Positions 5,369-17,212 of a DNA stretch of 17,212 nucleotides are shown here, in pieces. Origin of the DNA: Candidatus Micrarchaeota archaeon (GTDB taxonomy: Archaea; Micrarchaeota; Micrarchaeia; Anstonellales; Bilamarchaeaceae); the NCBI GenBank assembly GCA_018304385.1, contig JAGVWJ010000021.1, positions 1 through 17,212 of the forward strand, in the 5' to 3' direction. Numbering within the stretch: the first letter of the stretch is position 1; each line of letters opens with the position of its first letter. The translations under genes were made by a program, and so were the position numbers. Below the pieces are notes generated by a model, which had not been told where the DNA came from, ran no database searches, and saw only the letters and a list, made by a program, of their open reading frames with translations.

Positions 5369-6883
5369 ATGAAAGTAATAATAACAGGTAAAGACCTAAC
5401 TATAGAAAAAGTAGTGAACGTTGCCCGACAGTTTGAAGAAGTTGAACTTTCACAAGAGGTTATAAAGCACATCGAAGATTCAGCCTCATTAGTGGACCAG
5501 TTTATTAAGAACAAAAAAAAGTTGTATGGGATTACAACTGGCTTTGGTGCATTAGCTAATTCTATAATACCTCAAGACAAGATTCATGAACTACAATATA
5601 ATATTATAATAAGCCATGCAACAGCTGTTGGAGATCCGTTTCCTACAGAAATTGTTAGAGCCGCGATGCTATTGAAATTAAATACACTTGCGAGTGGATG
5701 CTGTGGTGTAAGACTAAAAACTGTAAAAATGCTAATAGATATGCTAAACAAAAGGATCCACCCGATTATTCCAAGTAAAGGTTCGTTAGGTGCAAGCGGG
5801 GATCTTGCTCCATTGGCTCATATGGCACTTGTTATGATAGGAAAGGGAACTGCAGAATATAATGGAAATATTATTTTAGGTAGTGAGGCACTTAGACTAG
5901 CTGGATTAACTCCATTAGAACTAGAAGCAAAAGAAGGATTATCACTAGTAAACGGTACTCAGATTATGGCCGCAATAGGCGCTTTGGCGATTTATGATAC
6001 GGAAACATTGCTAAAAAACGCAGATATTGCAGCAACGATGACTGCTGAGGCATTAAAAAGCAATGAAGCGCCTTTTGATGAAGAGGTTCATAAACTTCGA
6101 CCACACCCAGGGCAAATAAAATGCGCAAGGAACATAAGGAAATTAATTAAAGAAAGTAAACTAATTGGTTCAAATGGCATTACTCAAGATCCGTATTCCA
6201 TAAGATGTATTCCGCAGGTCAACGGAGCAGTAAAGGATACTATCGAGTTTTGTAGAAAAATAATGGAAACAGAGATTAATGCTGTAACAGATAACCCAGT
6301 GATATTATTAGAAAGCAAACGAATACTATCGTGTGGACATTTTCACGGTGAATACCTTGCATTTGCTTTAGATTTTTTGGCAATAGCAATAGCTGAACTT
6401 GCAGACATCGCAGAGAGAAGAATTGCACGATTAGTAGACCCAAAATTAAGTGGATTGGCTGCGTTTCTTATAAATGAGGCAGGTGTTAATTCTGGATTCA
6501 TGATACCACACTACACTGCTGCCGCCCTGGTTTCAGAAAATAAAATATTGTGCCATCCTGCTTCTGTTGATTCAATACCTACTTCTGCAAATCAAGAGGA
6601 TCATGTAAGCATGGGAGCAACAGCTGCGAACAAGCTACTGCAAGTAATATTCAACGTACAAAATGTAATATGTATAGAATACATATGTGCTGCTCAAGCA
6701 CTTGATTTAATAAACGGAAAACAAGGTATTGGAACTAATGCTGCTTATAAAACTATAAGAAAAAAGATAAAATTTCTTGAAAAAGATGAAGAACTCCATG
6801 GTTATATAATGAAAAGCTTTGAACTTGTAAAAAATGGAGAGATTGTTAGAGACGTTGAAACCGCTATAGGAGGATTGGAATGA
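5369..6883 (+). CDS. hutH: histidine ammonia-lyase
   Basis: YGITTGFG, the SH motif (IIISHA), the MIO-forming GASGDLAPLAH, NGTQ, QDPYSIRCIPQ, DNP, GHFHG and SANQEDHVSMG. Confidence 0.97.
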   Translation: MKVIITGKDLTIEKVVNVARQFEEVELSQEVIKHIEDSASLVDQFIKNKKKLYGITTGFGALANSIIPQDKIHELQYNIIISHATAVGDPFPTEIVRAAMLLKLNTLASGCCGVRLKTVKMLIDMLNKRIHPIIPSKGSLGASGDLAPLAHMALVMIGKGTAEYNGNIILGSEALRLAGLTPLELEAKEGLSLVNGTQIMAAIGALAIYDTETLLKNADIAATMTAEALKSNEAPFDEEVHKLRPHPGQIKCARNIRKLIKESKLIGSNGITQDPYSIRCIPQVNGAVKDTIEFCRKIMETEINAVTDNPVILLESKRILSCGHFHGEYLAFALDFLAIAIAELADIAERRIARLVDPKLSGLAAFLINEAGVNSGFMIPHYTAAALVSENKILCHPASVDSIPTSANQEDHVSMGATAANKLLQVIFNVQNVICIEYICAAQALDLINGKQGIGTNAAYKTIRKKIKFLEKDEELHGYIMKSFELVKNGEIVRDVETAIGGLE

Positions 6884-7860
6884 AATATCTCAAACCTAGC
6901 AATGTGGATATTTACGAACCTGTACGTGATGAGAATGACATTAGAATTAAGAACATAATACGGAATTACAAAGAAGATGAGGAATGTAATATTGGAATAA
7001 TTGGTGTACCTTTTGATTATGGTGTTGAGCTTAGCAATGGAAGAGTTGGAGCAAAAGAAGGGCCGAATGCAGTTCGAACTGCGCTTAAAAGATATGGTTC
7101 GATTTATAATGTAGAAAAAAACATCAATATTAGCGATTTGAAAATTTGCGATTTTGGAGATGTTGAAGTTGTTGAACGAGATTCACAAGAAACACATGCA
7201 CGTGTTAGCGAAACTGTTTTCGAACTAGTAAAGAAAGATGTTTTACCTATTGTTATCGGAGGCGGGCATGATATAAGCTTTGCAAATGTGCGTGGTCTTT
7301 GTAATGCTTTTGATGGAAAGATTGGCGGGATAAACATAGATGCACATTTTGATGTTCGTATTGTTAAGAATGGAAAAAATTCTAGTGGAACATCTTTTAG
7401 GCGAGTTTTGGAAGAATTGGATGGCAAGGTTTTAGGAAAGAATTTTGTTGAGATTGGTTGCCATGATAATTTGAATTCAAAAACTTATTATGAATATTTA
7501 CTTGCAAAGAAATCGAATATTATTACACTAAGTGAAGTCCAGAAAAAAAGAATGAAGAAGATTATGGTGGGTGCATTAAAGATTGCGAATGCTGCAACGA
7601 AAGCGAGTTTTGTCAGTGTTGATATCGATGCAATGCCACAGCATGTTGCCCCAGGATGTAGCGCGCCAAGCGCAAGAGGAATTCAAGCTCATGATATTTT
7701 AGAGGCTTGTTTTATTGCTGGTGTTAATTCTAAGGTAAAACTATTTGACATCATGGAACTAAATCCAAGATATGATGTTGATAATAGAACTGCATTGCTT
7801 GCTGCCACCATGATTGTGAGCTTCTTGGAGGGATTTGCTATGCGGAATAAAAGTAAGTGA
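6880..7860 (+). CDS. hutG: formimidoylglutamase (arginase/ureohydrolase family)
   Basis: [34 protein letters not shown] and SVDIDA metal motifs. It sits within the hut cluster with an ATGA overlap with hutH. Confidence 0.9.
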
Positions 7861-7864
7861 GAAA

Positions 7865-9547
7865 ATGCGCCCAATGTATTACGAAGAAAAACCAAAAGAG
7901 AAAATTCGTGCGCCTAGAGGAAATGATCTACATTGCAAAAATTGGGATGCTGAAGCTGCAATGCGTATGCTAATGAATAATCTGGATCCAGAAGTTGCTA
8001 TTGATTCAGATGAGCTTATTGTTTATGGTGGCACAGGAAGAGCTGCAAGAAATTGGAGAGAGTACAATAGAATAATCAAAGCACTTCTTAAGCTTGAGAA
8101 TGATGAGACGCTTTGCATACAAAGCGGAAAACCTGTTTATGTTGCGCCTACTAACCTAGAGGCACCACGCATTATTTTGGCGAATTCTAATATTGTTCCG
8201 AAATGGTCTACGCAGGAGAACTTTGATAAGTATGATGAGATGGGGCTTACAATGTATGGTCAAATGACTGCAGGAAGTTGGATTTACATCGGCACCCAGG
8301 GGATAATACAAGGAACATATGAAACATTTGCAGCCCTAGGTAAGAAAGATTTGAAAGTTGATTCACTAAAAGGAAAACTTATTTTAACTGCTGGAATGGG
8401 CGGGATGAGCGGTGCTCAACCTTTAGCAGCAACAATGAATGATGCAATAATCCTGAATGTTGAGGTTAGAAAGGAAAGAATAGAAAGAAAAGTTAGAGAA
8501 GGATATTGCGATAGAATAACTGAAGATTTAGATGAAGCACTAAGGTGGATTGAGGATGCAAAAAAGAGAGGAGAGGCAGTTTCTATTGGATTAATTGGTA
8601 ATGCTGGAAACATTTATCCTGAGCTTGTTAGAAGAAATATAACACCTGATATAGTTACAGATCAAACACCTGCGCACAATTTACTGAGCTATGTTCCTAC
8701 GGGGAATTTAAAGGAATTAGATGAAATAAGAGATAAAAATCCTAACGAATATAAACGCAAAGCACTTGAGTCAATAAAAAAACATGTTGATGCAATGCTG
8801 GAAATGCAAAAGCGTGGAGCGATTGTATTTGATTATGGAAATAATCTACGTGCGCAGGCAGAATTAGCAGGATTAGATATACGTAAAAAAGATGGTTCGT
8901 TTAAATATCCTGGGTTTGTTCCAGCTTATATCCGACCGTTATTCTGCATTGGAAAAGGACCATTTAGGTGGGCAGCACTTTCTGGTAATACAGAGGATAT
9001 TCACAAAATTGACAAAATGCTTATTGACTTATTTCCAGAAGATAAGGCATTAAAACGCTGGCTCGAGTTAGCTTCTAAGAAAATCCCATTTACTGGATTA
9101 CCAGCACGTATCTGTTGGTTTGGATATGGTGACCGTGCTCTTGCTGCAATAGAAATAAATAAAATGGTAAGAAAAAGAGAGATTGAGGCACCTATTGTAA
9201 TTGGTAGAGACCATCTAGATTGCGGTTCTGTTGCTTCACCTGATAGAGAAACTGAAGGAATGAAGGACGGCAGTGATGCTATAGCAGATTGGCCTTTGCT
9301 TAATTTCGCTTTAAACACTTGTAATGGCGCGAGTTGGGTAAGTTTTCATAATGGTGGTGGCGTGGGCATAGGAAATTCATTACATGCGGGTATGGTAATT
9401 GTTGCTGATGGAACAATAGAAAGAGAAAAGCGCCTTAAACGGGTCTTAACTGTTGATCCAGGTATCGGAATAGCTAGACATGTTGATGCAGGGTATGAAG
9501 AAGCAATAGAAACTGCTAAGAAAAAAGGAGTGAATGTTCCTAAATAA
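7865..9547 (+). CDS. hutU: urocanate hydratase
   Basis: [77 protein letters not shown] and HNGGGVGIG. The start is placed at ATG 7865 (or 7874), after the hutG stop, rather than at 7835. Confidence 0.97.
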
Positions 9548-10816
9548 ATGGAGACAATTATGATTACTGCTGATTTAGTAATAAAAAACGCATCCGAATT
9601 GCTTACTATCAAAGGCGCATCAAATAAACCAAAAGTTAAAGAACAATTGAGTAATTTAGGAATAATAAACAATGGAGCGATAGCGATAGCTGGCGAGAGT
9701 ATTGTATGGCTGGGGGGAAGTAATGAGATAAAAGATAACATTAAGATAGATAAAAAAACTAGAATTATTGATGCGAAAAACAAAGTTGTTATGCCTGGAT
9801 TTGTTGATTGTCATACTCATTTAGTCTTTGCTGGCTCACGGGAAAAAGAGTGGGTTGATAGAATAAATGGAAAGGATTATTTGGAAATACTAAAAAACGG
9901 AGGGGGGATTTTAAGCACAGTTAATGCAACTCGCAATGCGGGCGAAGAAGAATTATTGAATAGAGCACTTCATCATCTTGGTAATATGCTAAATCATGGT
10001 ACTACCACGATAGAGGCTAAAAGCGGATATGGTCTTACAATTGACTCCGAGATAAAGATATTAAGATTACTAAAAAAGCTTGCTAAAAAACAGCCAATAG
10101 AAATAGTTTCAACGTTTCTTGGCGCGCACGCAGTTCCACCAGAGTTTGCGAATAGTGCAGTATATGCAAAATTCATAATTGAAAAAATGATTCCAGTTGT
10201 TGCAAAATTAGCTGATTACTGCGATGTATTTTGCGAAAAAAGTGCATTTTCTGCTGAAGAAACAAAAAGAATTTTATTGGCTGGAAAAAAATATGGACTT
10301 AGGCCACGCGCTCATATTAATGAGTTCAACGAAATAGGTGGAACTGAAATTGCGAAAGAGGTTAAAGCAATAGCAGTAGATCATTTGGATGTTGTTTCTG
10401 ATGATGGAATTAAAAACATAAGAGAAGCAGGCAGCATTACTGTTTTGCTCCCAGGCGTTCCATTCTTTTTAGGAACTGAAAAGTACGCGCCAGCTAAAAA
10501 AATTATACATGCTGGCATTCCTATAGCAATTGCTACTGATTTTAATCCTGGTTCTTGTTATTGTGAATCAATGCCTTTTATTATAAGTTTAGCATGTATG
10601 AAAATGAAACTAAGCCCAGCACAAGCAATAAACGCTGCAACTATAAATGCAGCGCATGCGATTGAAAGTGCAAATAATATTGGAAGTATTGAGGTAGGAA
10701 AACAAGCGGATATCTTGATTTTAGATGTTGAACAGCATACTCAGATTCCTTATCACTTAGCTGCAAATCCTGTAAGGATAGTAATAAAAAAAGGTAGGAT
10801 TGTAAAAAGAAATTAG
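9548..10816 (+). CDS. hutI: imidazolonepropionase
   Basis: PGFVDCHTHLVFAG, GGGILSTV, GTTTIEAKSGYGL, FLGAHAVP, DVFCE, DHL and ATDFNPG. The ATG directly follows the hutU stop. An alternative start is at 9560. Confidence 0.96.
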   Translation: METIMITADLVIKNASELLTIKGASNKPKVKEQLSNLGIINNGAIAIAGESIVWLGGSNEIKDNIKIDKKTRIIDAKNKVVMPGFVDCHTHLVFAGSREKEWVDRINGKDYLEILKNGGGILSTVNATRNAGEEELLNRALHHLGNMLNHGTTTIEAKSGYGLTIDSEIKILRLLKKLAKKQPIEIVSTFLGAHAVPPEFANSAVYAKFIIEKMIPVVAKLADYCDVFCEKSAFSAEETKRILLAGKKYGLRPRAHINEFNEIGGTEIAKEVKAIAVDHLDVVSDDGIKNIREAGSITVLLPGVPFFLGTEKYAPAKKIIHAGIPIAIATDFNPGSCYCESMPFIISLACMKMKLSPAQAINAATINAAHAIESANNIGSIEVGKQADILILDVEQHTQIPYHLAANPVRIVIKKGRIVKRN

Positions 10817-10843
10817 AATATAATAAATATTGGGGTGGATTTT

Positions 10844-11512
10844 ATGGATGTCATTGAGGAGATAGATAAAAGAATTCAGGAAAGAAGTATATTAAAACAT
10901 CCTTTTTATCAGAGCTGGAAAATGGGAAAGCTAACTCGTGAGATGTTACAAGAGTATGCAAGACAATATTATAAGCATGTTGCTGCTTTTCCACAATATC
11001 TAAGCGCAGTGCATACACAGATGGATAATGCGACTGACAGAAGATTGGTATTACAGAACCTAATGGATGAGGAAAACGGAGAAAACAACCATCCAGAGCT
11101 TTGGCTAAGGTTTGCTGAGGCAACTGGAGTAATAAGAAATGATATTGGTACTGTACCTACTGCAGAAACAGAAGATTTCATTAAAAACTTTATGAAACAC
11201 TGCAAAAACAGTATTGTAGAGGGCATCGCAGCACTTTATGCATATGAATCCCAAATACCAAAAGTCAGCGAGGAGAAAATTAATGGATTAGTAGCGCATT
11301 ATGGAGTAACTAGCGATTCAGGCTTAGAATATTTCAAGGTTCATATGACTGCTGATGTTGAGCATTCTGCTGCTGAACGCGAGCTTATTAGAAAATATGT
11401 TACAGATGAAGAAACTAAAAAGAAAGTGCTTGAGGCTGTAAGCAACACGCTTGATGCTTATTGGAATATGCTAAGTGGGATAGAAAAAATATGTAAAATG
11501 GAATGTAGTTAG
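10844..11512 (+). CDS. CADD-family (Chlamydia CT610-like) heme-oxygenase-like diiron protein, putative self-sacrificing p-aminobenzoate synthase
   Basis: HPFY, YARQYY, AFPQYLSAVH, NLMDEENG.NH, AALYAYESQIP..SEEKI.GL and H...DVEH match CADD motifs. The SD-like GGGGTGG at 10832-10838 favours ATG 10844 over GTG 10835. Confidence 0.88.
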   Translation: MDVIEEIDKRIQERSILKHPFYQSWKMGKLTREMLQEYARQYYKHVAAFPQYLSAVHTQMDNATDRRLVLQNLMDEENGENNHPELWLRFAEATGVIRNDIGTVPTAETEDFIKNFMKHCKNSIVEGIAALYAYESQIPKVSEEKINGLVAHYGVTSDSGLEYFKVHMTADVEHSAAERELIRKYVTDEETKKKVLEAVSNTLDAYWNMLSGIEKICKMECS

Positions 11513-12114
11513 CTAGTCAACCCATCCAAAATCTCATACGCTCTTGCAGTATCTGCCTGCTTTATTACCAAGAGAGTATCAGTATAACAAGAAACAAACT
11601 CTGCTATATTTATTCCTTCTGCTGAAAGCGCATCTAAGATATGCGCAATTACCCCTGGAACTTCTTCAAGCGCTGGCGGACTGTGGATTGTTATTAAGTT
11701 AAGATTAGTTTCGGTATGAAGTACATTCTTTGATTTTCGTACGTTTTCTAGTTCCTTTTCTTCCACCACATACGTAATGGTATCTTTGCTTTCTACATAA
11801 GAGAGATATTTTAGTTGTTCTATCTCTCGCGCACTAATAACAACTGCTACTTTGCTCTTTAGCGATATTGAACTGTCCTTTAGTACTTTCAGTATCTTGC
11901 TTTCCAAATCTTCTTCTTTTTCCCTAATCTTTGATGTTAAACGCACTAATGCCATTTTTATAGCGTTCTGGTGCTTTTTGCTTCCAAACACTTCTATAGA
12001 AATTTTTCTGGCTAAAGCTGAGTAATTTACTATGCCTTCACGCACTATTTCTTTCAAGAAGGGTCTTCGCTTTATGTAAAGCCATACGAGTTCGCTTATG
12101 TTTTCTTTTTTCAT
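11509..12114 (-). CDS. putative amino-acid-sensing transcriptional regulator: N-terminal HTH-like region plus C-terminal ACT domain
   Basis: N-terminal VNYSALARKI...AIKMALVRL (helix-turn-helix-like) and C-terminal PGVIAHILDALSAEGINIAEFVSCYTDTLLVIK (ACT). It is divergent from argF. ATG 12114 is preferred over TTG 12123. Confidence 0.75.
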   Translation of the reverse strand: MKKENISELVWLYIKRRPFLKEIVREGIVNYSALARKISIEVFGSKKHQNAIKMALVRLTSKIREKEEDLESKILKVLKDSSISLKSKVAVVISAREIEQLKYLSYVESKDTITYVVEEKELENVRKSKNVLHTETNLNLITIHSPPALEEVPGVIAHILDALSAEGINIAEFVSCYTDTLLVIKQADTARAYEILDGLTS

Positions 12115-12137
12115 ATTTCTCAAGGCTCATTGCTATA

Positions 12138-12202
12138 TGTTACATTTGGAACAATTAAATATATAAATGTAACATTTATTACGCAATGTTTAAATATAAA
12201 GT
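12138..12202. promoter_or_regulatory. divergent promoter/operator block, copy A (argF operon on +, ACT regulator on -)
   Basis: TGTTACA-TT-TGGAACA (12138-12153), a 14-nt spacer holding the minus-strand TATA TTTATATA (12167-12160), TGTAACA-TT-TATTACG (12168-12183) and TATA TTTAAATA (12189-12196) 22 nt before ATG 12219. It is near-identical to 16519-16583. Confidence 0.8.
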
Positions 12203-12218
12203 AACGCGTAACAAACTT

Positions 12219-13133
12219 ATGAAAAATATACTTAGTGATTTTGATCTCTCCGGGCAGGAAATAGAAGATTTGTTAGGTCTAGCAACAAAAATAAAGGCAG
12301 CTCCAGCATCATTCAAAGATTCATTAAAAAACAAAATTTTAGGTATGGTATTTCAAAAACCTTCCACACGTACCAAAGCATCATTTGAAGCAGCTATATA
12401 CCAACTTGGCGGGCATGCAATATTTCTAGATTCTACTAACAGCCAGATAAGCAGAGGGGAATCGTTGGCTGAAACTGCTAAAATCTTATCAGGATATACA
12501 AATGGAATTGCTGCTAGAGTATACTATCAGGCAGATTTAGAAGATATGGCCATGGCAAGTAAAGTACCAATAATAAACGCATTAACCGATAAATATCATA
12601 CGTGCCAGATTTTATCTGATCTGCTTACAATAAAAGAGAAAAAAGGCAAGCTAGCTGAGTTAAAATTAGTCTATTTTGGGGATGCAGGAAACAACGTAGC
12701 CCACTCTCTGATCATTTCTTGTTCTAAGGTTGGCATAGATGTTACTATTGCCTGCCCGCAAAATGAAAAATATCAACCTTCAAAGGATATTCTTGTAAAA
12801 GCAAAGAGAGATGTACTTGGAAAAATAGAAATAACAGAAAACTGGAATGCTGCAGCAAAGGATGCAGACATTCTTTATACTGACACCTGGGTAAGCATGG
12901 GAATGGAAAAAGAAAAAAACGAAAGAATAAATGACCTAATGGATTACCAGATAAACTCAAAGACACTGGAAAAAGCAAAGGCAGACTGCATTGTCATGCA
13001 TTGCCTACCTGCTTACACCGGGTATGAGATATCTGAAACTGTTTTGAAAGGCCCAAAATCAGTTGTATATGAGCAAGCAGAAAATAAAATGCACATGCAG
13101 AAGGCAGTACTTTATCAACTTATGAAAGATTAG
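12219..13133 (+). CDS. argF: ornithine carbamoyltransferase
   Basis: FQKPSTRT, INAL, HTCQ (HPCQ variant), GDAGNNVAHS, YTDTWVSMG, HCLPA and QAENK. The start is placed at ATG 12219 (MKNILS...) because the 12186 extension would run through the TATA box. Confidence 0.95.
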   Translation: MKNILSDFDLSGQEIEDLLGLATKIKAAPASFKDSLKNKILGMVFQKPSTRTKASFEAAIYQLGGHAIFLDSTNSQISRGESLAETAKILSGYTNGIAARVYYQADLEDMAMASKVPIINALTDKYHTCQILSDLLTIKEKKGKLAELKLVYFGDAGNNVAHSLIISCSKVGIDVTIACPQNEKYQPSKDILVKAKRDVLGKIEITENWNAAAKDADILYTDTWVSMGMEKEKNERINDLMDYQINSKTLEKAKADCIVMHCLPAYTGYEISETVLKGPKSVVYEQAENKMHMQKAVLYQLMKD

Positions 13134-13142
13134 GTGTCAAAC

Positions 13143-14444
13143 ATGAAAGAAACGATGATGAAAATTCTAAAGAGTTTTGGACTGGACAAGGAATTAGACC
13201 TTTACTTACAGCTATTCCATAAGACACCAGCAACTAAATTTGCAGTAGTTAAAATAAGCGGTAACACATTGGAAGAAAAACTATTGGTTGTTGCAGAGGA
13301 TCTGGCATTTCTTTCTAAACTTGGTCTTACGCCAATCGTAGTCCATGGTGGTGGCAAACAGATTGATAAACAACTAGAAAAAAATGGACTCGCAATCAAA
13401 AAAGTTTCAGGCCTTAGAATTACGGATAAAGAAACCATGAAAATAGCCTACAAAGTAATGAATAATATTACAAATAAACTCGTAAAGGCTATAACTAATG
13501 AAGGTGGACATGCAATCAATGCAAATGGATTAGAACTAATTGAAGTGGAGAAAAAACCGCCAGTTAAAGGTATAGATCTCGGGTTCGTAGGTGACTTAAC
13601 AAAAATAAAAACTGATAAAATAACTGAGTTATGCCAATCAGGTTATATCCCAATTTTGGCTTCAATAGGCCACAAGGAGGATGTTGCTTATAATCTAAAT
13701 GCGGACACGCTTGCAAGCGGATTTGTTAAAAGGCTAAAACCAAAAAAGTTTATATTAATCACTGAAACAGGAGGAGTTCTTGATAAAAACGAACAGATAA
13801 TATCAACAATAGACATTAGTACTGATCTGCCCGAGCTGATAAAACAGAATGTAATTACTGAAGGAATGCTTTTGAAAGTAAAGGAAATAGAAACACTTTT
13901 GGAGAAAGCGCCAACTACAGTTGTGGAAGTGTGCTCAGCTGAGAATCTTCTACAAGAACTATTTACCGTAAAAGGAAGTGGAACTTTCATAAGATATGGC
14001 GGGAATTTTATCATTAGAAAAAGTTTCAAAGGACTAAACACAACTAAGATAAAAAAACTACTTGAAGAAAGTTTTGGTAAGGAGCTTGTGCCAGGATATT
14101 TTTATAAAGCTGTTGACAGCGTCATAACAGACAAAGACTACTCTGGAATAATGATTGTAAAAAAGATAAATGGAGTGCCTTATCTGGATAAATTTGCAAT
14201 AACGAAAAGCGCGCAGGGCAATGGGTTGGGAAAAGCAATGTGGACTTTTGTAAAAAATCACTACCCAACGCTTATATGGCGTTCTTCGATAACCAATCCT
14301 ATAAATAACTGGTACTTTAAAAATTGCGATGGCATCCAGAAAAGCAATGGGTGGATAATTTTTTGGTATAATGTAAGCAGAACAAAAGCAACAGCATTAA
14401 TACCAATTATATCAAAAATACCAAAAACACTGGTGAAAAAATGA
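13143..14444 (+). CDS. argB: acetylglutamate kinase fused to DUF619/GNAT domain (Xanthomonas/fungal-type, probable bifunctional N-acetylglutamate synthase/kinase)
   Basis: AAK domain: FAVVKISG, PIVVHGGG, GLRITD, NLNAD, TGGVLD, ELFTVKGSGT. GNAT domain: LLEESFGKELV, YLDKFAI...AQGNGLG, WRS...N.INNWYF..CDG, FWY. SD AGGTG lies 6 nt before ATG 13143; the alternative is GTG 13134. Confidence 0.9.
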   Translation: MKETMMKILKSFGLDKELDLYLQLFHKTPATKFAVVKISGNTLEEKLLVVAEDLAFLSKLGLTPIVVHGGGKQIDKQLEKNGLAIKKVSGLRITDKETMKIAYKVMNNITNKLVKAITNEGGHAINANGLELIEVEKKPPVKGIDLGFVGDLTKIKTDKITELCQSGYIPILASIGHKEDVAYNLNADTLASGFVKRLKPKKFILITETGGVLDKNEQIISTIDISTDLPELIKQNVITEGMLLKVKEIETLLEKAPTTVVEVCSAENLLQELFTVKGSGTFIRYGGNFIIRKSFKGLNTTKIKKLLEESFGKELVPGYFYKAVDSVITDKDYSGIMIVKKINGVPYLDKFAITKSAQGNGLGKAMWTFVKNHYPTLIWRSSITNPINNWYFKNCDGIQKSNGWIIFWYNVSRTKATALIPIISKIPKTLVKK

Positions 14445-15580
14445 TAACTAAAGATGGACAAAATTACATAATGAATACTTACAAGCGCTATCCGATTACT
14501 TTAAAAAACGGCAAAGGATGCAATGTTTACGATCATGAAGGAAACGAATATCTGGATATGATTTCTGGAATTGCCTGCTGTCCGCTTGGCCATTCAAATG
14601 AAGCAATAAAAAAAGCGATAATGGAAAGTGCGGATGGGTTTACCAACATCAGCAATCTGTTTTACACTGAACAACAAGTAAAGCTGGCAAAGAAACTAGT
14701 TGAAGTATCAGGCATGGAAAAATGCTTCTTTGGAAACAGCGGCACTGAAGCAAACGAAGCTGCCTTAAAGCTCGCGATTGCAAATACAAAGAAACATGAA
14801 TTCATTGCATGTAAAAATGCATTCCATGGAAGAACTTTTGGAAGCTTGTCTGCGACATGGGAGAAAAAATACCGCACAAAATTTAAGCCATTGGTTTCAA
14901 AATTTAAATTTGTTGAATATGGAAATACAAACGCAATTGAAAACACCATATCTGATAAGACAGCTGCAGTCATCATTGAGCCGATACAAGGTGAAGCAGG
15001 CATTATTGTTCCTCCGGAAGATTACCTGAAAGAAGTGCAAGAGATATGCGACAAAAAAGGAGTACTCCTGATTATAGATGAAGTGCAGACTGGGAATGGA
15101 AGAACTGGGACCTACTTTGAGTACCTTTCACATTCTATAAAGCCAGACATTGTAACTACTGCAAAGGGACTTGCTAATGGATTGCCAATGGGAGTAGCAA
15201 TTGCAAAAGGAATAGACTTTGAGCCAGGCGACCATGCTTCTACTTTTGGAGGCAATTCATTTGTTTCTTCTGTTGCATTGACTACTATTGAAACTATATT
15301 CAAAGAAAATTTAATGGAAAATGCAAAGAACATTGGAGAATATATAAAAAATGAAATACAAATGCTAAATAAAAAATCTATTAAGGATATTCGTGGTAAG
15401 GGCTTAATGATTGGCATAGAGCTAAGAAAAAATGCAAAGGAAAAAGTAGCTGAATTTATATCAAAAAAGATATTGATATCTGTTGTACATGAAAAAACAA
15501 TCAGATTACTGCCCCCGCTCATTATCAACAAGGGTGAGGTAGAAAATTTCATATCTTCATTCAACGAGGTAGTAAAATGA
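14441..15580 (+). CDS. argD: acetylornithine (or ornithine) aminotransferase, class III PLP enzyme
   Basis: YLDMISGIA...LGH, SNLF, NSGTEANEAALK, FHGRT, EPIQGEAG, DEVQTG.GRTG, TTAKGLANG and HASTFGGN. ATGA overlap with argB. Confidence 0.9.
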   Translation: MITKDGQNYIMNTYKRYPITLKNGKGCNVYDHEGNEYLDMISGIACCPLGHSNEAIKKAIMESADGFTNISNLFYTEQQVKLAKKLVEVSGMEKCFFGNSGTEANEAALKLAIANTKKHEFIACKNAFHGRTFGSLSATWEKKYRTKFKPLVSKFKFVEYGNTNAIENTISDKTAAVIIEPIQGEAGIIVPPEDYLKEVQEICDKKGVLLIIDEVQTGNGRTGTYFEYLSHSIKPDIVTTAKGLANGLPMGVAIAKGIDFEPGDHASTFGGNSFVSSVALTTIETIFKENLMENAKNIGEYIKNEIQMLNKKSIKDIRGKGLMIGIELRKNAKEKVAEFISKKILISVVHEKTIRLLPPLIINKGEVENFISSFNEVVK

Positions 15581-16479
15581 ACATAAATGTTGCAATACTT
15601 GGAGCGTCTGGCTATGGAGGAAACGAACTGATAAAGATACTTGCAAATCACCCAAAAGTAAAAATAAAGTATGCCCAAAGCAGAAGCAGTGAAGGAAAAA
15701 TGATAAATGAGATTTATTCTGATTCAAATCTGGAAATAAAATACTCAAACCCTTCGGTTGAACAAATAAATTCATGTGACGCGGTTTTTCTTGCATTGCC
15801 CAAAGAGGAAGCTGCTTCAATAGCAACTAAGATAAAAACAGTTATAATAGATTTGAGTCCTGCGCATCGCTTTGATTCAAAATACGTTTATGGCCTTCCT
15901 GAAATAAACAAGGAAAAAATCAAAAAATCAAATTTCATAGCAAATCCAGGGTGTTATGCAACTGCTTGCATCTTGGGCATATTGCCAATAGCTGGTAAAA
16001 AAATCAGTGCAATTGCATTCGATTGTAAAAGCGGTTATTCGGGTGGAGGGAAGAACAAGAAATATGAATTTGAAGAAAATGTAATCCCTTACTCATTGAA
16101 GGATCATTATCAAAAGCCTGAGGTTGCCAAGTTCCTAAGAATACCGTTTTCATTCGTTCCTCATGTTGTAAATGCATTTAGAGGGTTAATAGCAACTATC
16201 CATATTTTTGGGGAGATTGAATCCAAAGATTTCGAAAAACTTGAAATGATTTATAAAAAGTTTTATGAAAAAGAACCTTTGGTTAGAATTATAAGTGAGG
16301 TTCCAGACTTTAGTAAAGTAAATAATCAACCAGGTTGCCTAATTGGCGGGTTCTCTAAATCCAAAGATCATATAGTTATAGTAAGCGCTATTGATAATTT
16401 ACTAAAAGGTGCTGCATCGCAGGCAGTACAAAACATGAATATAAAATTTGGATTTAAGGAAACTGAAGGACTGAGATAA
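15577..16479 (+). CDS. argC: N-acetyl-gamma-glutamyl-phosphate reductase
   Basis: GASGYGG, VFLALP, IDLS..HR, YGLPE, IANPGCYAT (catalytic Cys), SGYSGGG, FVPHV..FRG and IDNLLKGAASQAVQNMN. ATGA overlap with argD. Confidence 0.95.
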   Translation: MNINVAILGASGYGGNELIKILANHPKVKIKYAQSRSSEGKMINEIYSDSNLEIKYSNPSVEQINSCDAVFLALPKEEAASIATKIKTVIIDLSPAHRFDSKYVYGLPEINKEKIKKSNFIANPGCYATACILGILPIAGKKISAIAFDCKSGYSGGGKNKKYEFEENVIPYSLKDHYQKPEVAKFLRIPFSFVPHVVNAFRGLIATIHIFGEIESKDFEKLEMIYKKFYEKEPLVRIISEVPDFSKVNNQPGCLIGGFSKSKDHIVIVSAIDNLLKGAASQAVQNMNIKFGFKETEGLR

Positions 16480-16518
16480 ACTAAAGAATGCAGTTGATGA
16501 TTCGGGCATCTTCTAATA

Positions 16519-16583
16519 TGTTCCATTTGTAACATCTATTTAAATATTTGTAACATATATTACGCAATATTTAAATATAAAGT
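16519..16583 (+). promoter_or_regulatory. promoter/operator block, copy B (upstream of deiminase-family gene)
   Basis: TGTTCCA-TT-TGTAACA (16519-16534), a 14-nt spacer, TGTAACA-TA-TATTACG (16549-16564) and TATA TTTAAATA (16570-16577) 22 nt before ATG 16600. 54/65 identical to copy A without gaps. Confidence 0.8.
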
Positions 16584-16599
16584 TTGACGCGATAGATAC

Positions 16600-17212
16600 A
16601 TGAATTTACACATAACAGCAAAACTACCAGTAAAACCTGGCTTAAGAAAAAGAGATGCGAAAGCAATTTTAGCTACTAGATTGTTACTAGATACACTAAA
16701 AGACCATCCAAAAGTAAAAATAGTTGAAGTGGCAGATGTATCAAAACGACAAGTTAATTGTACTAGCGAAAAAGGAAAGCTAAGTTCTGCAATAGTCTCA
16801 TTACCAACTTATCTTGATTGGGCAGAACCCATAAACGTTGCTGAGCTTGCGAACATGGGCAATAAACCAAATCGTGCAACTGCAGTTATAGAACACATTC
16901 AATTTCTATTAACATTATTATCACATGGTGTTGAATTAACATTGGTAAAACCGTCAGCGGATACGTTAGAAGGAGTTTATACGCGTGATATTGCAGCAGT
17001 TATAGGACATAAATGCATACTTGCGAATATGGTTGCAGAACCGCGCTGGCCCGAGGAAAAAACAATAACTGGAGGGATAATCCCACCTAGTGAAGTTAAA
17101 CTCGAGGGCGGAAATGTAATAATTGATGGAGATGTTGTATTTATAGGAGTAGGCGACAGAACTAATATTGAAGCAGTAGTTTGGTTGCAAGAAGTAGTTG
17201 GCACAGCATTTC
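16600..17212 (+). CDS. amidinotransferase / arginine deiminase / dimethylargininase superfamily protein (partial, runs off the window; absent from ORF track)
   Basis: Manual translation with no stop: MNLHITAKLPVKPGLRKRDAKAILATRLLLDTLKDHPKVKIVEVADVSKRQVNCTSEKGKLSSAIVSLP...AVIEHIQFLLTLLSHGVEL...EGVYTRDIAAVIG...KLEGGNVIIDGDVVFIGVGDRTNIEAV... SE-G-L, TRD, EGG(N)V and GxxxRTN are family motifs. Confidence 0.85.
   Translation, partial: MNLHITAKLPVKPGLRKRDAKAILATRLLLDTLKDHPKVKIVEVADVSKRQVNCTSEKGKLSSAIVSLPTYLDWAEPINVAELANMGNKPNRATAVIEHIQFLLTLLSHGVELTLVKPSADTLEGVYTRDIAAVIGHKCILANMVAEPRWPEEKTITGGIIPPSEVKLEGGNVIIDGDVVFIGVGDRTNIEAVVWLQEVVGTAF

Follow-up and report, generated by a model that had tools for sequence, protein, structure and literature searches.

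A DUF7523-ACT protein and its predicted operator as a candidate autoregulated arginine regulator in Micrarchaeota

To our knowledge, how arginine synthesis is regulated in archaea without ArgR is largely unknown. A 17,212-nt stretch of DNA from a Candidatus Micrarchaeota archaeon raises the question of whether a small ACT protein, encoded back to back with a set of arginine genes, could take on this role. The stretch, hereafter referred to as the window, is the entire 17.2-kb contig C49 (GenBank JAGVWJ010000021.1) of a 1.53-Mb assembly in 65 contigs (36.5% G+C, 89% completeness), and protein matches place it in the Micrarchaeota (DPANN). Its gene order runs from unknown genes through hutH-hutG-hutU-hutI and a CADD/PqqC-like gene to the gene for the DUF7523-ACT protein, on the reverse strand, and the arg genes, on the forward strand. 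We consider it likely, with a probability of roughly 0.7, that this protein is a transcription factor of the arginine regulon that senses an amino acid, regulates its own gene and belongs to a distinct archaeal family, in which a DUF7523 head is joined to an aspartokinase-type double ACT sensor. What the sequence shows is the domain architecture of the protein, the anatomy of the operator and its uniqueness in the assembly, and, in two phyla, the conserved association of that operator with both the gene and arginine genes. A search of the literature on DUF7523, PF24367, COG2150, Micrarchaeota arginine and archaeal arginine regulators retrieved no characterised member of the family.

The operator and its conservation with arginine genes

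The first-pass annotation had described the region between the ACT gene and argF as a 104-nt spacer packed with paired heptamers, and both parts of this description hold. We place the argF start at ATG 12219, since residue 11-14 of the longer open reading frame (ORF) is where the NCBIfam alignment starts, and the spacer (12115-12218) then measures 104 nt. The heptamer TGTWACA occurs seven times in the window against 2.2 expected occurrences, a number reached by none of 200 shuffles, and four of the seven copies fall in two short promoter regions (12138, 12168, 16528 and 16549). In the direction of the ACT gene, the elements follow each other in the order reversed argF TATA box, TTGCGTAA box, TGTTACA, the gene's own TATA box TTTATATA, 7 nt, the palindrome TGTTCCAAATGTAACA, 23 nt and the ATG (coordinates in Table 1). 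The own TATA box is flanked as had been claimed, by the palindrome downstream, on the gene side, and by a heptamer box upstream. Of the two heptamer pairs that had been called, one stands as the palindrome, while the other is better read as a single operator box, TGTAACA, plus the B recognition element (BRE) and TATA box of the arg promoter. Because the argF ATG lies only 22 nt after that TATA box, the argF-operon mRNA probably lacks a leader or carries only a very short one.

The same block stands in front of the deiminase-family gene at 16600. An ungapped alignment of 12125-12225 with 16505-16605 gives 71 identical positions out of 101, and the distance from TATA box to ATG is 22 nt in both. 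Across the 1.53-Mb assembly, these two blocks are the only places in which two exact TGTWACA lie within 80 nt of each other, and also the only exact matches to TGTTNCANNTGNAACA; the paired-box observation is real and far beyond chance. Three palindromes with one mismatch, examined as possible further regulon members in the same genome, all lie inside genes. Neither argG nor argH was found in the assembly.

To describe the conservation of this arrangement, we used 66 related loci from other species, 64 of which have the upstream DNA required for counting neighbours. In 55 of the 66, the 150 nt upstream of the ACT gene contain the palindrome TGTTNCA-N2-TGNAACA with at most two mismatches, and exact matches are about 350-fold commoner there than in the remaining 857 kb of the same loci, which bears out the co-occurrence of the family with TGTWACA-type sites that had been proposed as a check. 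The aligned consensus of the 55 sites retains the whole operator architecture. A third box with at most one mismatch from TGTTACA accompanies 47 of them; measured upstream from the palindrome start, its distance is 21 bp in 38 sites and 20 bp in 8, which corresponds to two helical turns. In 27 of the 55, a TATA-like octamer is found upstream of the palindrome at no more than 30 nt, in 20 cases at one offset. In 19 loci the palindrome ends 1 nt ahead of the ATG, a position downstream of the TATA box and just before the point at which a leaderless transcript would start.

The genes that accompany the operator belong largely to one pathway. Of the 64 loci, 47 have a gene of the arginine pathway as the next divergent gene, no more than 450 nt away: argG in 18, a gene of argA/B type (full NAGS/K, a stand-alone NAT domain or argB) in 17, a deiminase-like gene in 7, argH in 3, and argF and argE in 1 each. 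Eight further loci have arg genes within a few kb. Extra full copies of the operator block are found at internal arg promoters in three loci (L002, L017 and L039), as at 16519 in the window. In an Anstonella genome of 1.3 Mb, the ACT gene is unlinked to arg genes. The sole exact palindrome of that genome stands in front of argG, at a distance of about 20 kb, and is accompanied there by the third box and a TATA box. Among 60 sampled genomes of the phylum, the regulator and argG are both present in 11, the regulator without argG in 5, argG without the regulator in 1, and neither in 43; the single argG-only genome has no palindrome site within one mismatch near argG. The operator linkage, the arg neighbours, the extra copies and the Anstonella site support, at the level of sequence, the earlier proposal that the protein is the cognate regulator of the arg and deiminase promoters. 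One palindrome that falls within an ABC-2 permease gene in another genome (L072) seems to be there by chance.

The DUF7523-ACT protein and its relatives

Two Pfam models match the protein above their gathering scores, DUF7523 (PF24367) near the N-terminus (residues 14-71, 31.0 bits, cut-off 27) and ACT_7 (PF13840) near the C-terminus (residues 139-196, E 3.8e-10, 39.9 bits, cut-off 27). The AlphaFold (AF2) model of the full-length chain has a predicted local distance difference test score (pLDDT) of 88 and contains helices at 6-15, 18-26, 31-43 and 49-79; a beta-rich unit comes next, and then a canonical ACT unit. In the predicted model, residues 72-201 superpose on aspartokinase regulatory domains, residues 76-201 aligning to that of the threonine-bound aspartokinase of M. 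jannaschii (3c1n) with a Z of 14.5 and a root-mean-square deviation (rmsd) of 1.9 over 123 residues, several aspartokinase beta subunits and regulatory domains reach Z 13-14, and Foldseek matches the double ACT to an aspartokinase regulatory domain at E 5e-8; the predicted fold is that of an aspartokinase-type double ACT. The ACT domain that had been called at the C-terminus is thus confirmed, and the comparison that had been drawn with the arginine sensor CASTOR1 is structurally reasonable, arginine-bound CASTOR1 giving a Z of 10.0 and an rmsd of 2.8 over 122 residues of the modelled double ACT, with aspartokinase the closer match. A search of solved structures by sequence returned no meaningful match.

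Taken alone, the N-terminal 80 residues are also confidently predicted to fold (AF2, pLDDT 93), as three short helices in a bundle plus a long helix. This domain is rich in lysine and arginine and holds the most conserved residues of the family, P18, N30, L34 and A35 being invariant and S32, R36, K53 and R58 nearly so. On the basis of the model, a tri-helical, homeodomain-like DNA-binding head is plausible.

Hundreds of sequences in the Micrarchaeota conserve the protein at 50-86% identity. They are named 'ACT domain-containing protein' or DUF7523 in the databases, apart from a few JGI records that read 'aspartokinase' and one that reads 'arginine repressor'. A paralogue with 28% identity is encoded in the window's own genome on contig C33 (34256-34885, equivalent to L067:5251-5898), with matches to DUF7523 and ACT_7 that are both below cut-off, a different upstream region and no arg neighbour; a gene for a pyruvoyl-dependent arginine decarboxylase lies about 2 kb from it (L067:2838-3404).

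Beyond the phylum, a profile search recovered 1,619 cluster representatives at E <= 0.001, 691 of them at E <= 1e-10, and most of the 150 listed representatives are 190-260 aa long and matched over their full length. Three larger proteins of 477-485 aa (P0227, P0246 and P0251) match the family profile in two to three stretches, best in the C-terminal half, and may be tandem duplications or fusions of the module. Three distant members with 26-35% identity are encoded divergently from argG-argH, inside a LysW-type arg cluster followed by argG-argH-carA-carB, and divergently from an amino-acid ABC transporter, respectively. The LysW-type cluster also holds an Lrp/AsnC gene among its lysW, argB and argC genes (L127:1688-2104), besides the DUF7523-ACT gene, and thus has two candidate regulators. 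In the Thermoproteota, 57 of 151 sampled genomes, about a third, have a match at E <= 1e-12, and in the best 30 loci the adjacent gene is argG (9), carA (10), a transporter binding protein (6) or none of these (5). Thermoproteota members with an IVNYSALAR-type helix have a palindrome of the TGTTACA-N2-TGTAAC type just before the start (L123, L134, L138 and L156). Members of a carA-adjacent subfamily (L143-L153), with ANYSSVAR or ANLSAMAR helices, have different inverted repeats immediately ahead of the start codon, either TGGTCA...TGACC or CCAATTTTGG...CCAAAATTGG.

Proposed mechanism and alternatives

We infer from these data that the protein binds DNA, and the identity of its ligand and the direction of its control at the arg promoters are likewise part of the model that follows. 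A dimer, joined via the long helix and/or the ACT pair, would read the 16-bp palindrome TGTTNCA-N2-TGNAACA through contacts made by the helix with the invariant N-x-S-x-L-A-R motif. Because the palindrome lies between the gene's own TATA box and the transcription start, its occupancy would block RNA polymerase and repress the gene itself. The third box, two helical turns away between the back-to-back promoters, abuts the BRE/TATA of the arg promoter; once the ACT pair has bound its ligand, most likely L-arginine, further subunits would assemble on this box and switch off the genes argF-argB/A-argD-argC. At the duplicated block, the deiminase-family gene would be switched off in the same way, and probably also argG-argH past the contig end. 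L-arginine is put forward as the candidate ligand from the content of the predicted regulon, and histidine is an unlikely one, since no operator precedes the hut genes.

A number of points weigh against this model. The recognised helix-turn-helix (HTH) families give no help: when 31 N-terminal domains were scanned at E <= 1, none matched an HTH Pfam family and DUF7523 was the one family matched, in all 31. Foldseek returned nothing significant for the N-terminal domain at E <= 0.001, and a wide structural search with VIA-align gave a best Z of 5.8; homeodomains and other DNA-binding proteins scored Z 4-5 amid unrelated helical proteins. As these matches are weak and mixed, they do not establish DNA binding by the protein, and of the 'HTH-like' N-terminus that had been noted at first pass, the confident bundle of three helices plus a long helix stands while the assignment to an HTH class does not. 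The boxes at the arg promoters lie upstream of the BRE/TATA, where sites of archaeal activators such as Tar, Ptr2 and TFB-RF1 are typically located (PMC6737238), and repression at these promoters is suggested by analogy to TrpY. Co-regulation of biosynthetic genes with a deiminase-family gene would be odd if that enzyme is catabolic, and arginine is nominated as the ligand from the regulon. Finally, the compared genomes are akin to each other, which makes the counts above non-independent and descriptive.

The weakness of the N-terminal matches to known DNA-binding folds also lends itself to a different explanation, in which the ACT protein would be a member of the arginine regulon, a small amino-acid-sensing enzyme subunit like aspartokinase beta or the acetolactate synthase small subunit, and an unlinked factor would bind the palindrome. 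The C-terminal two-thirds of the protein are structurally an aspartokinase regulatory subunit, and one distant relative precedes the genes for aspartokinase and aspartate-semialdehyde dehydrogenase. We nevertheless find it improbable. The palindrome is kept at the promoter of the ACT gene where no arg gene is adjacent, for instance in L008; these loci are without any other conserved regulator gene; the argG-positive genome without the ACT gene lacks a site near argG; and the N-terminal domain is rich in lysine and arginine, with P18, N30, L34 and A35 invariant. Furthermore, operator type and putative recognition helix appear to vary together across phyla, a match that was judged by eye from 33 loci and carries no statistical test, which lessens its weight for our model; this co-variation is still the best available argument that the operator is read by this protein rather than by an unlinked factor.

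One could also speculate that the protein is the transcription factor of this operator, yet activates the arg promoters or senses another ligand, such as citrulline, ornithine, lysine or glutamine. The upstream position of the boxes would suit an activator, the closest structural matches of the sensor bind threonine or lysine, and carA or amino-acid transporters adjoin some relatives. The recovered regulon, however, is almost wholly arginine-specific (argG, argH, argF, argA/B, argE and deiminase-like genes), and the third box abuts the BRE, where an assembly of TrpY type would occlude TBP/TFB; neither point is decisive. We hold this variant to be rather unlikely. That the two blocks in the window are simply a recent local duplication of a promoter, with no operator function, could be supposed from their 71/101 ungapped identity within one contig, but the palindrome recurs with its spacing and box in other species, in 55 of 66 loci, and also in the relatives from Thermoproteota, which contradicts this idea and makes it highly implausible.

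The finding points to one defined protein, to an exactly described operator, made up of a 16-bp palindrome and a box at a distance of 21 bp, and to a predicted regulon that is small and clean. Recombinant protein would therefore permit a direct test of the hypothesis, even though these DPANN archaea are uncultured. In the Thermoproteota, where members occur next to argG or carA, genetics may be possible. In a wider reading, DUF7523 plus double-ACT proteins would be a widespread archaeal counterpart of ArgR, an arginine-sensing repressor family in at least the Micrarchaeota and Thermoproteota that fuses a new helical DNA-binding head to a sensor of aspartokinase/CASTOR type and uses lineage-specific operators co-varying with the recognition helix. 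We hold this generalisation tentatively, at somewhat short of even odds; if true, it would answer how most archaea control arginine synthesis.

Gene neighbourhood and comparison with known regulators

The features of the window are collected in Table 1. The deiminase-family gene, separated from argC by a gap of 120 nt, belongs to the amidinotransferase/DDAH/arginine-deiminase superfamily and scores far under the cut-offs of the arginine deiminase and dimethylargininase models; in related loci it is followed by argG-argH. Genes of this superfamily recur in the predicted regulon, mostly preceding argG-argH (e.g. L056:6914-7912 and L060:6979-7902). The acetylglutamate kinase of the window is fused to a NAT domain (N-acetylglutamate synthase, NAGS). 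In many other Micrarchaeota, the first divergent gene next to the ACT gene instead encodes a NAT domain on its own, about 170-195 aa long, and argG-argH come after it (L045:7404-7913, L039:7326-7913). On the other side, the gene for a putative folate/p-aminobenzoate (pABA) protein of the CADD family (NCBIfam TIGR04305, E 1.2e-82) converges on the DUF7523-ACT gene, the two ORFs overlapping by 4 nt at their stop codons. The histidine-utilisation operon upstream of it is complete, within a DPANN genome of 1.5 Mb, and no operator of TGTWACA type was found upstream of either the hut operon or the CADD gene.

Table 1. Genes and predicted regulatory elements of the window, with positions counted from its first nucleotide
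Feature	Position	Strand	Remark
DUF7523 + double-ACT protein gene, candidate regulator	11509-12114	-	201 aa; alternative TTG start at 12123
Predicted operator palindrome O1, TGTTACA-TT-TGGAACA	12138-12153		16 bp; between TATA box and start of the ACT gene
ACT gene TATA box TTTATATA	12160-12167	-	read from sequence; putative function
Predicted auxiliary operator box TGTAACA	12168-12174		21 bp from palindrome start (ACT strand), between the two back-to-back TATA boxes
argF-operon BRE-like TTACGCAA, then TATA box TTTAAATA	12179-12196	+	putative, assigned from position; ATG 22 nt past TATA
argF - fused argB/NAGS - argD - argC operon	12219-16479	+	genes abut or overlap by 4 nt
Fused acetylglutamate kinase + NAT (NAGS) gene	13134-14444	+
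Second predicted operator palindrome, TGTTCCA-TT-TGTAACA	16519-16534
Second predicted auxiliary box TGTAACA	16549-16555		again 21 bp from palindrome
Deiminase-family gene BRE-like TTACGCAA + TATA box TTTAAATA	16560-16577	+	putative; identical to argF block; ATG 22 nt past TATA
Amidinotransferase/DDAH/arginine-deiminase-superfamily gene	16600-17211	+	cut by contig end
CADD-family putative folate/pABA protein gene	10835-11512	+	downstream of hutI
Histidine-utilisation operon hutH, hutG, hutU, hutI	5369-10816	+
Three ORFs of 466, 345 and 226 aa	904-4129		466-aa ORF with weak BNR-like match; family matches absent or sub-threshold

In its presumed role, the protein resembles ArgR/AhrC, as an arginine-responsive and autoregulated factor that would control arg and deiminase-type genes via palindromic operators overlapping promoters. 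ARG-box operators are paired 18-bp palindromes of the TGAAT...ATTCA type; the operator of the window, TGTTNCA-N2-TGNAACA plus TGTTACA, differs from them, and whole-chain structural similarity to AhrC is weak (Z 7.0, rmsd 4.2). No Arg_repressor domain, neither the N-terminal winged helix nor the C-terminal arginine-binding domain, was found in the protein with Pfam or NCBIfam, and together with the different operator this led us to reject membership of the ArgR/AhrC family. The genome as a whole fits the ArgR-independence that had been suggested for the system, as the ArgR C-terminal domain PF02863 was not found in the 89%-complete assembly, while a control search recovered it in 8 bacteria. 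Regulators of the Lrp/AsnC class (feast/famine regulatory proteins, FFRP), such as LysM, combine an HTH head with an amino-acid-binding tail of beta-alpha-beta-beta-alpha-beta topology and control amino-acid genes, often autoregulated and often as oligomers. Membership of this class was rejected as well, there being no match to HTH_AsnC or AsnC_trans_reg and the sensor being an aspartokinase-type double ACT rather than a RAM domain. In the aspartokinase regulatory domain and in CASTOR1, the ligand is bound at the ACT-ACT interface. The double ACT fold is common to these proteins and ours, which differs from them in having neither a kinase domain nor a GATOR2-type partner, in its N-terminal DUF7523 helical domain and in an identity of just 14-18%; if it binds DNA as proposed, it would be a prokaryotic DNA-binding relative of an amino-acid sensor of aspartokinase/CASTOR1 type.

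The resemblance in anatomy is to TrpY of Methanothermobacter thermautotrophicus (Xie and Reeve 2005, as summarised in PMC6737238). The TRP boxes that TrpY binds lie where the promoters of trpY and trpE overlap; when tryptophan is absent TrpY inhibits trpY, and when it is present TrpY inhibits both promoters. It does so by blocking its own start site and, depending on the ligand, repressing the operon at the TATA box. TrpY is a small regulator of archaea that joins a helical domain at the N-terminus to an ACT sensor at the C-terminus and is encoded divergently from an amino-acid biosynthesis operon, with short, TGTACA-like boxes in overlapping back-to-back promoters. The gene of the window has this anatomy, and the likeness is one of anatomy only: it is divergent from an operon, with boxes in the overlapping promoters that include its own start region. 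TrpY differs in having one ACT unit (about 167 aa) where the protein of the window has an aspartokinase-type pair (about 200 aa), and in its pathway and operator. We rejected membership of the TrpY family (NCBIfam NF053754), since the protein has no TrpY_fam match at E <= 0.01; as a control, a Methanobacteriaceae TrpY orthologue divergent from trpE matches this model at 5.8e-65 with 218 bits. An hhalign comparison of our family with TrpY aligned 24 ACT columns only, with a probability of 4%, and the DUF7523-ACT family profile found aspartokinases only in five Methanobacteriaceae genomes. By analogy, the protein may work like TrpY while standing outside the TrpY family, as an ACT-sensing, autoregulated archaeal regulator of the TrpY type that would form a family of its own, in which both the operator and the pathway are new, and would provide a second, independent example of the TrpY logic.

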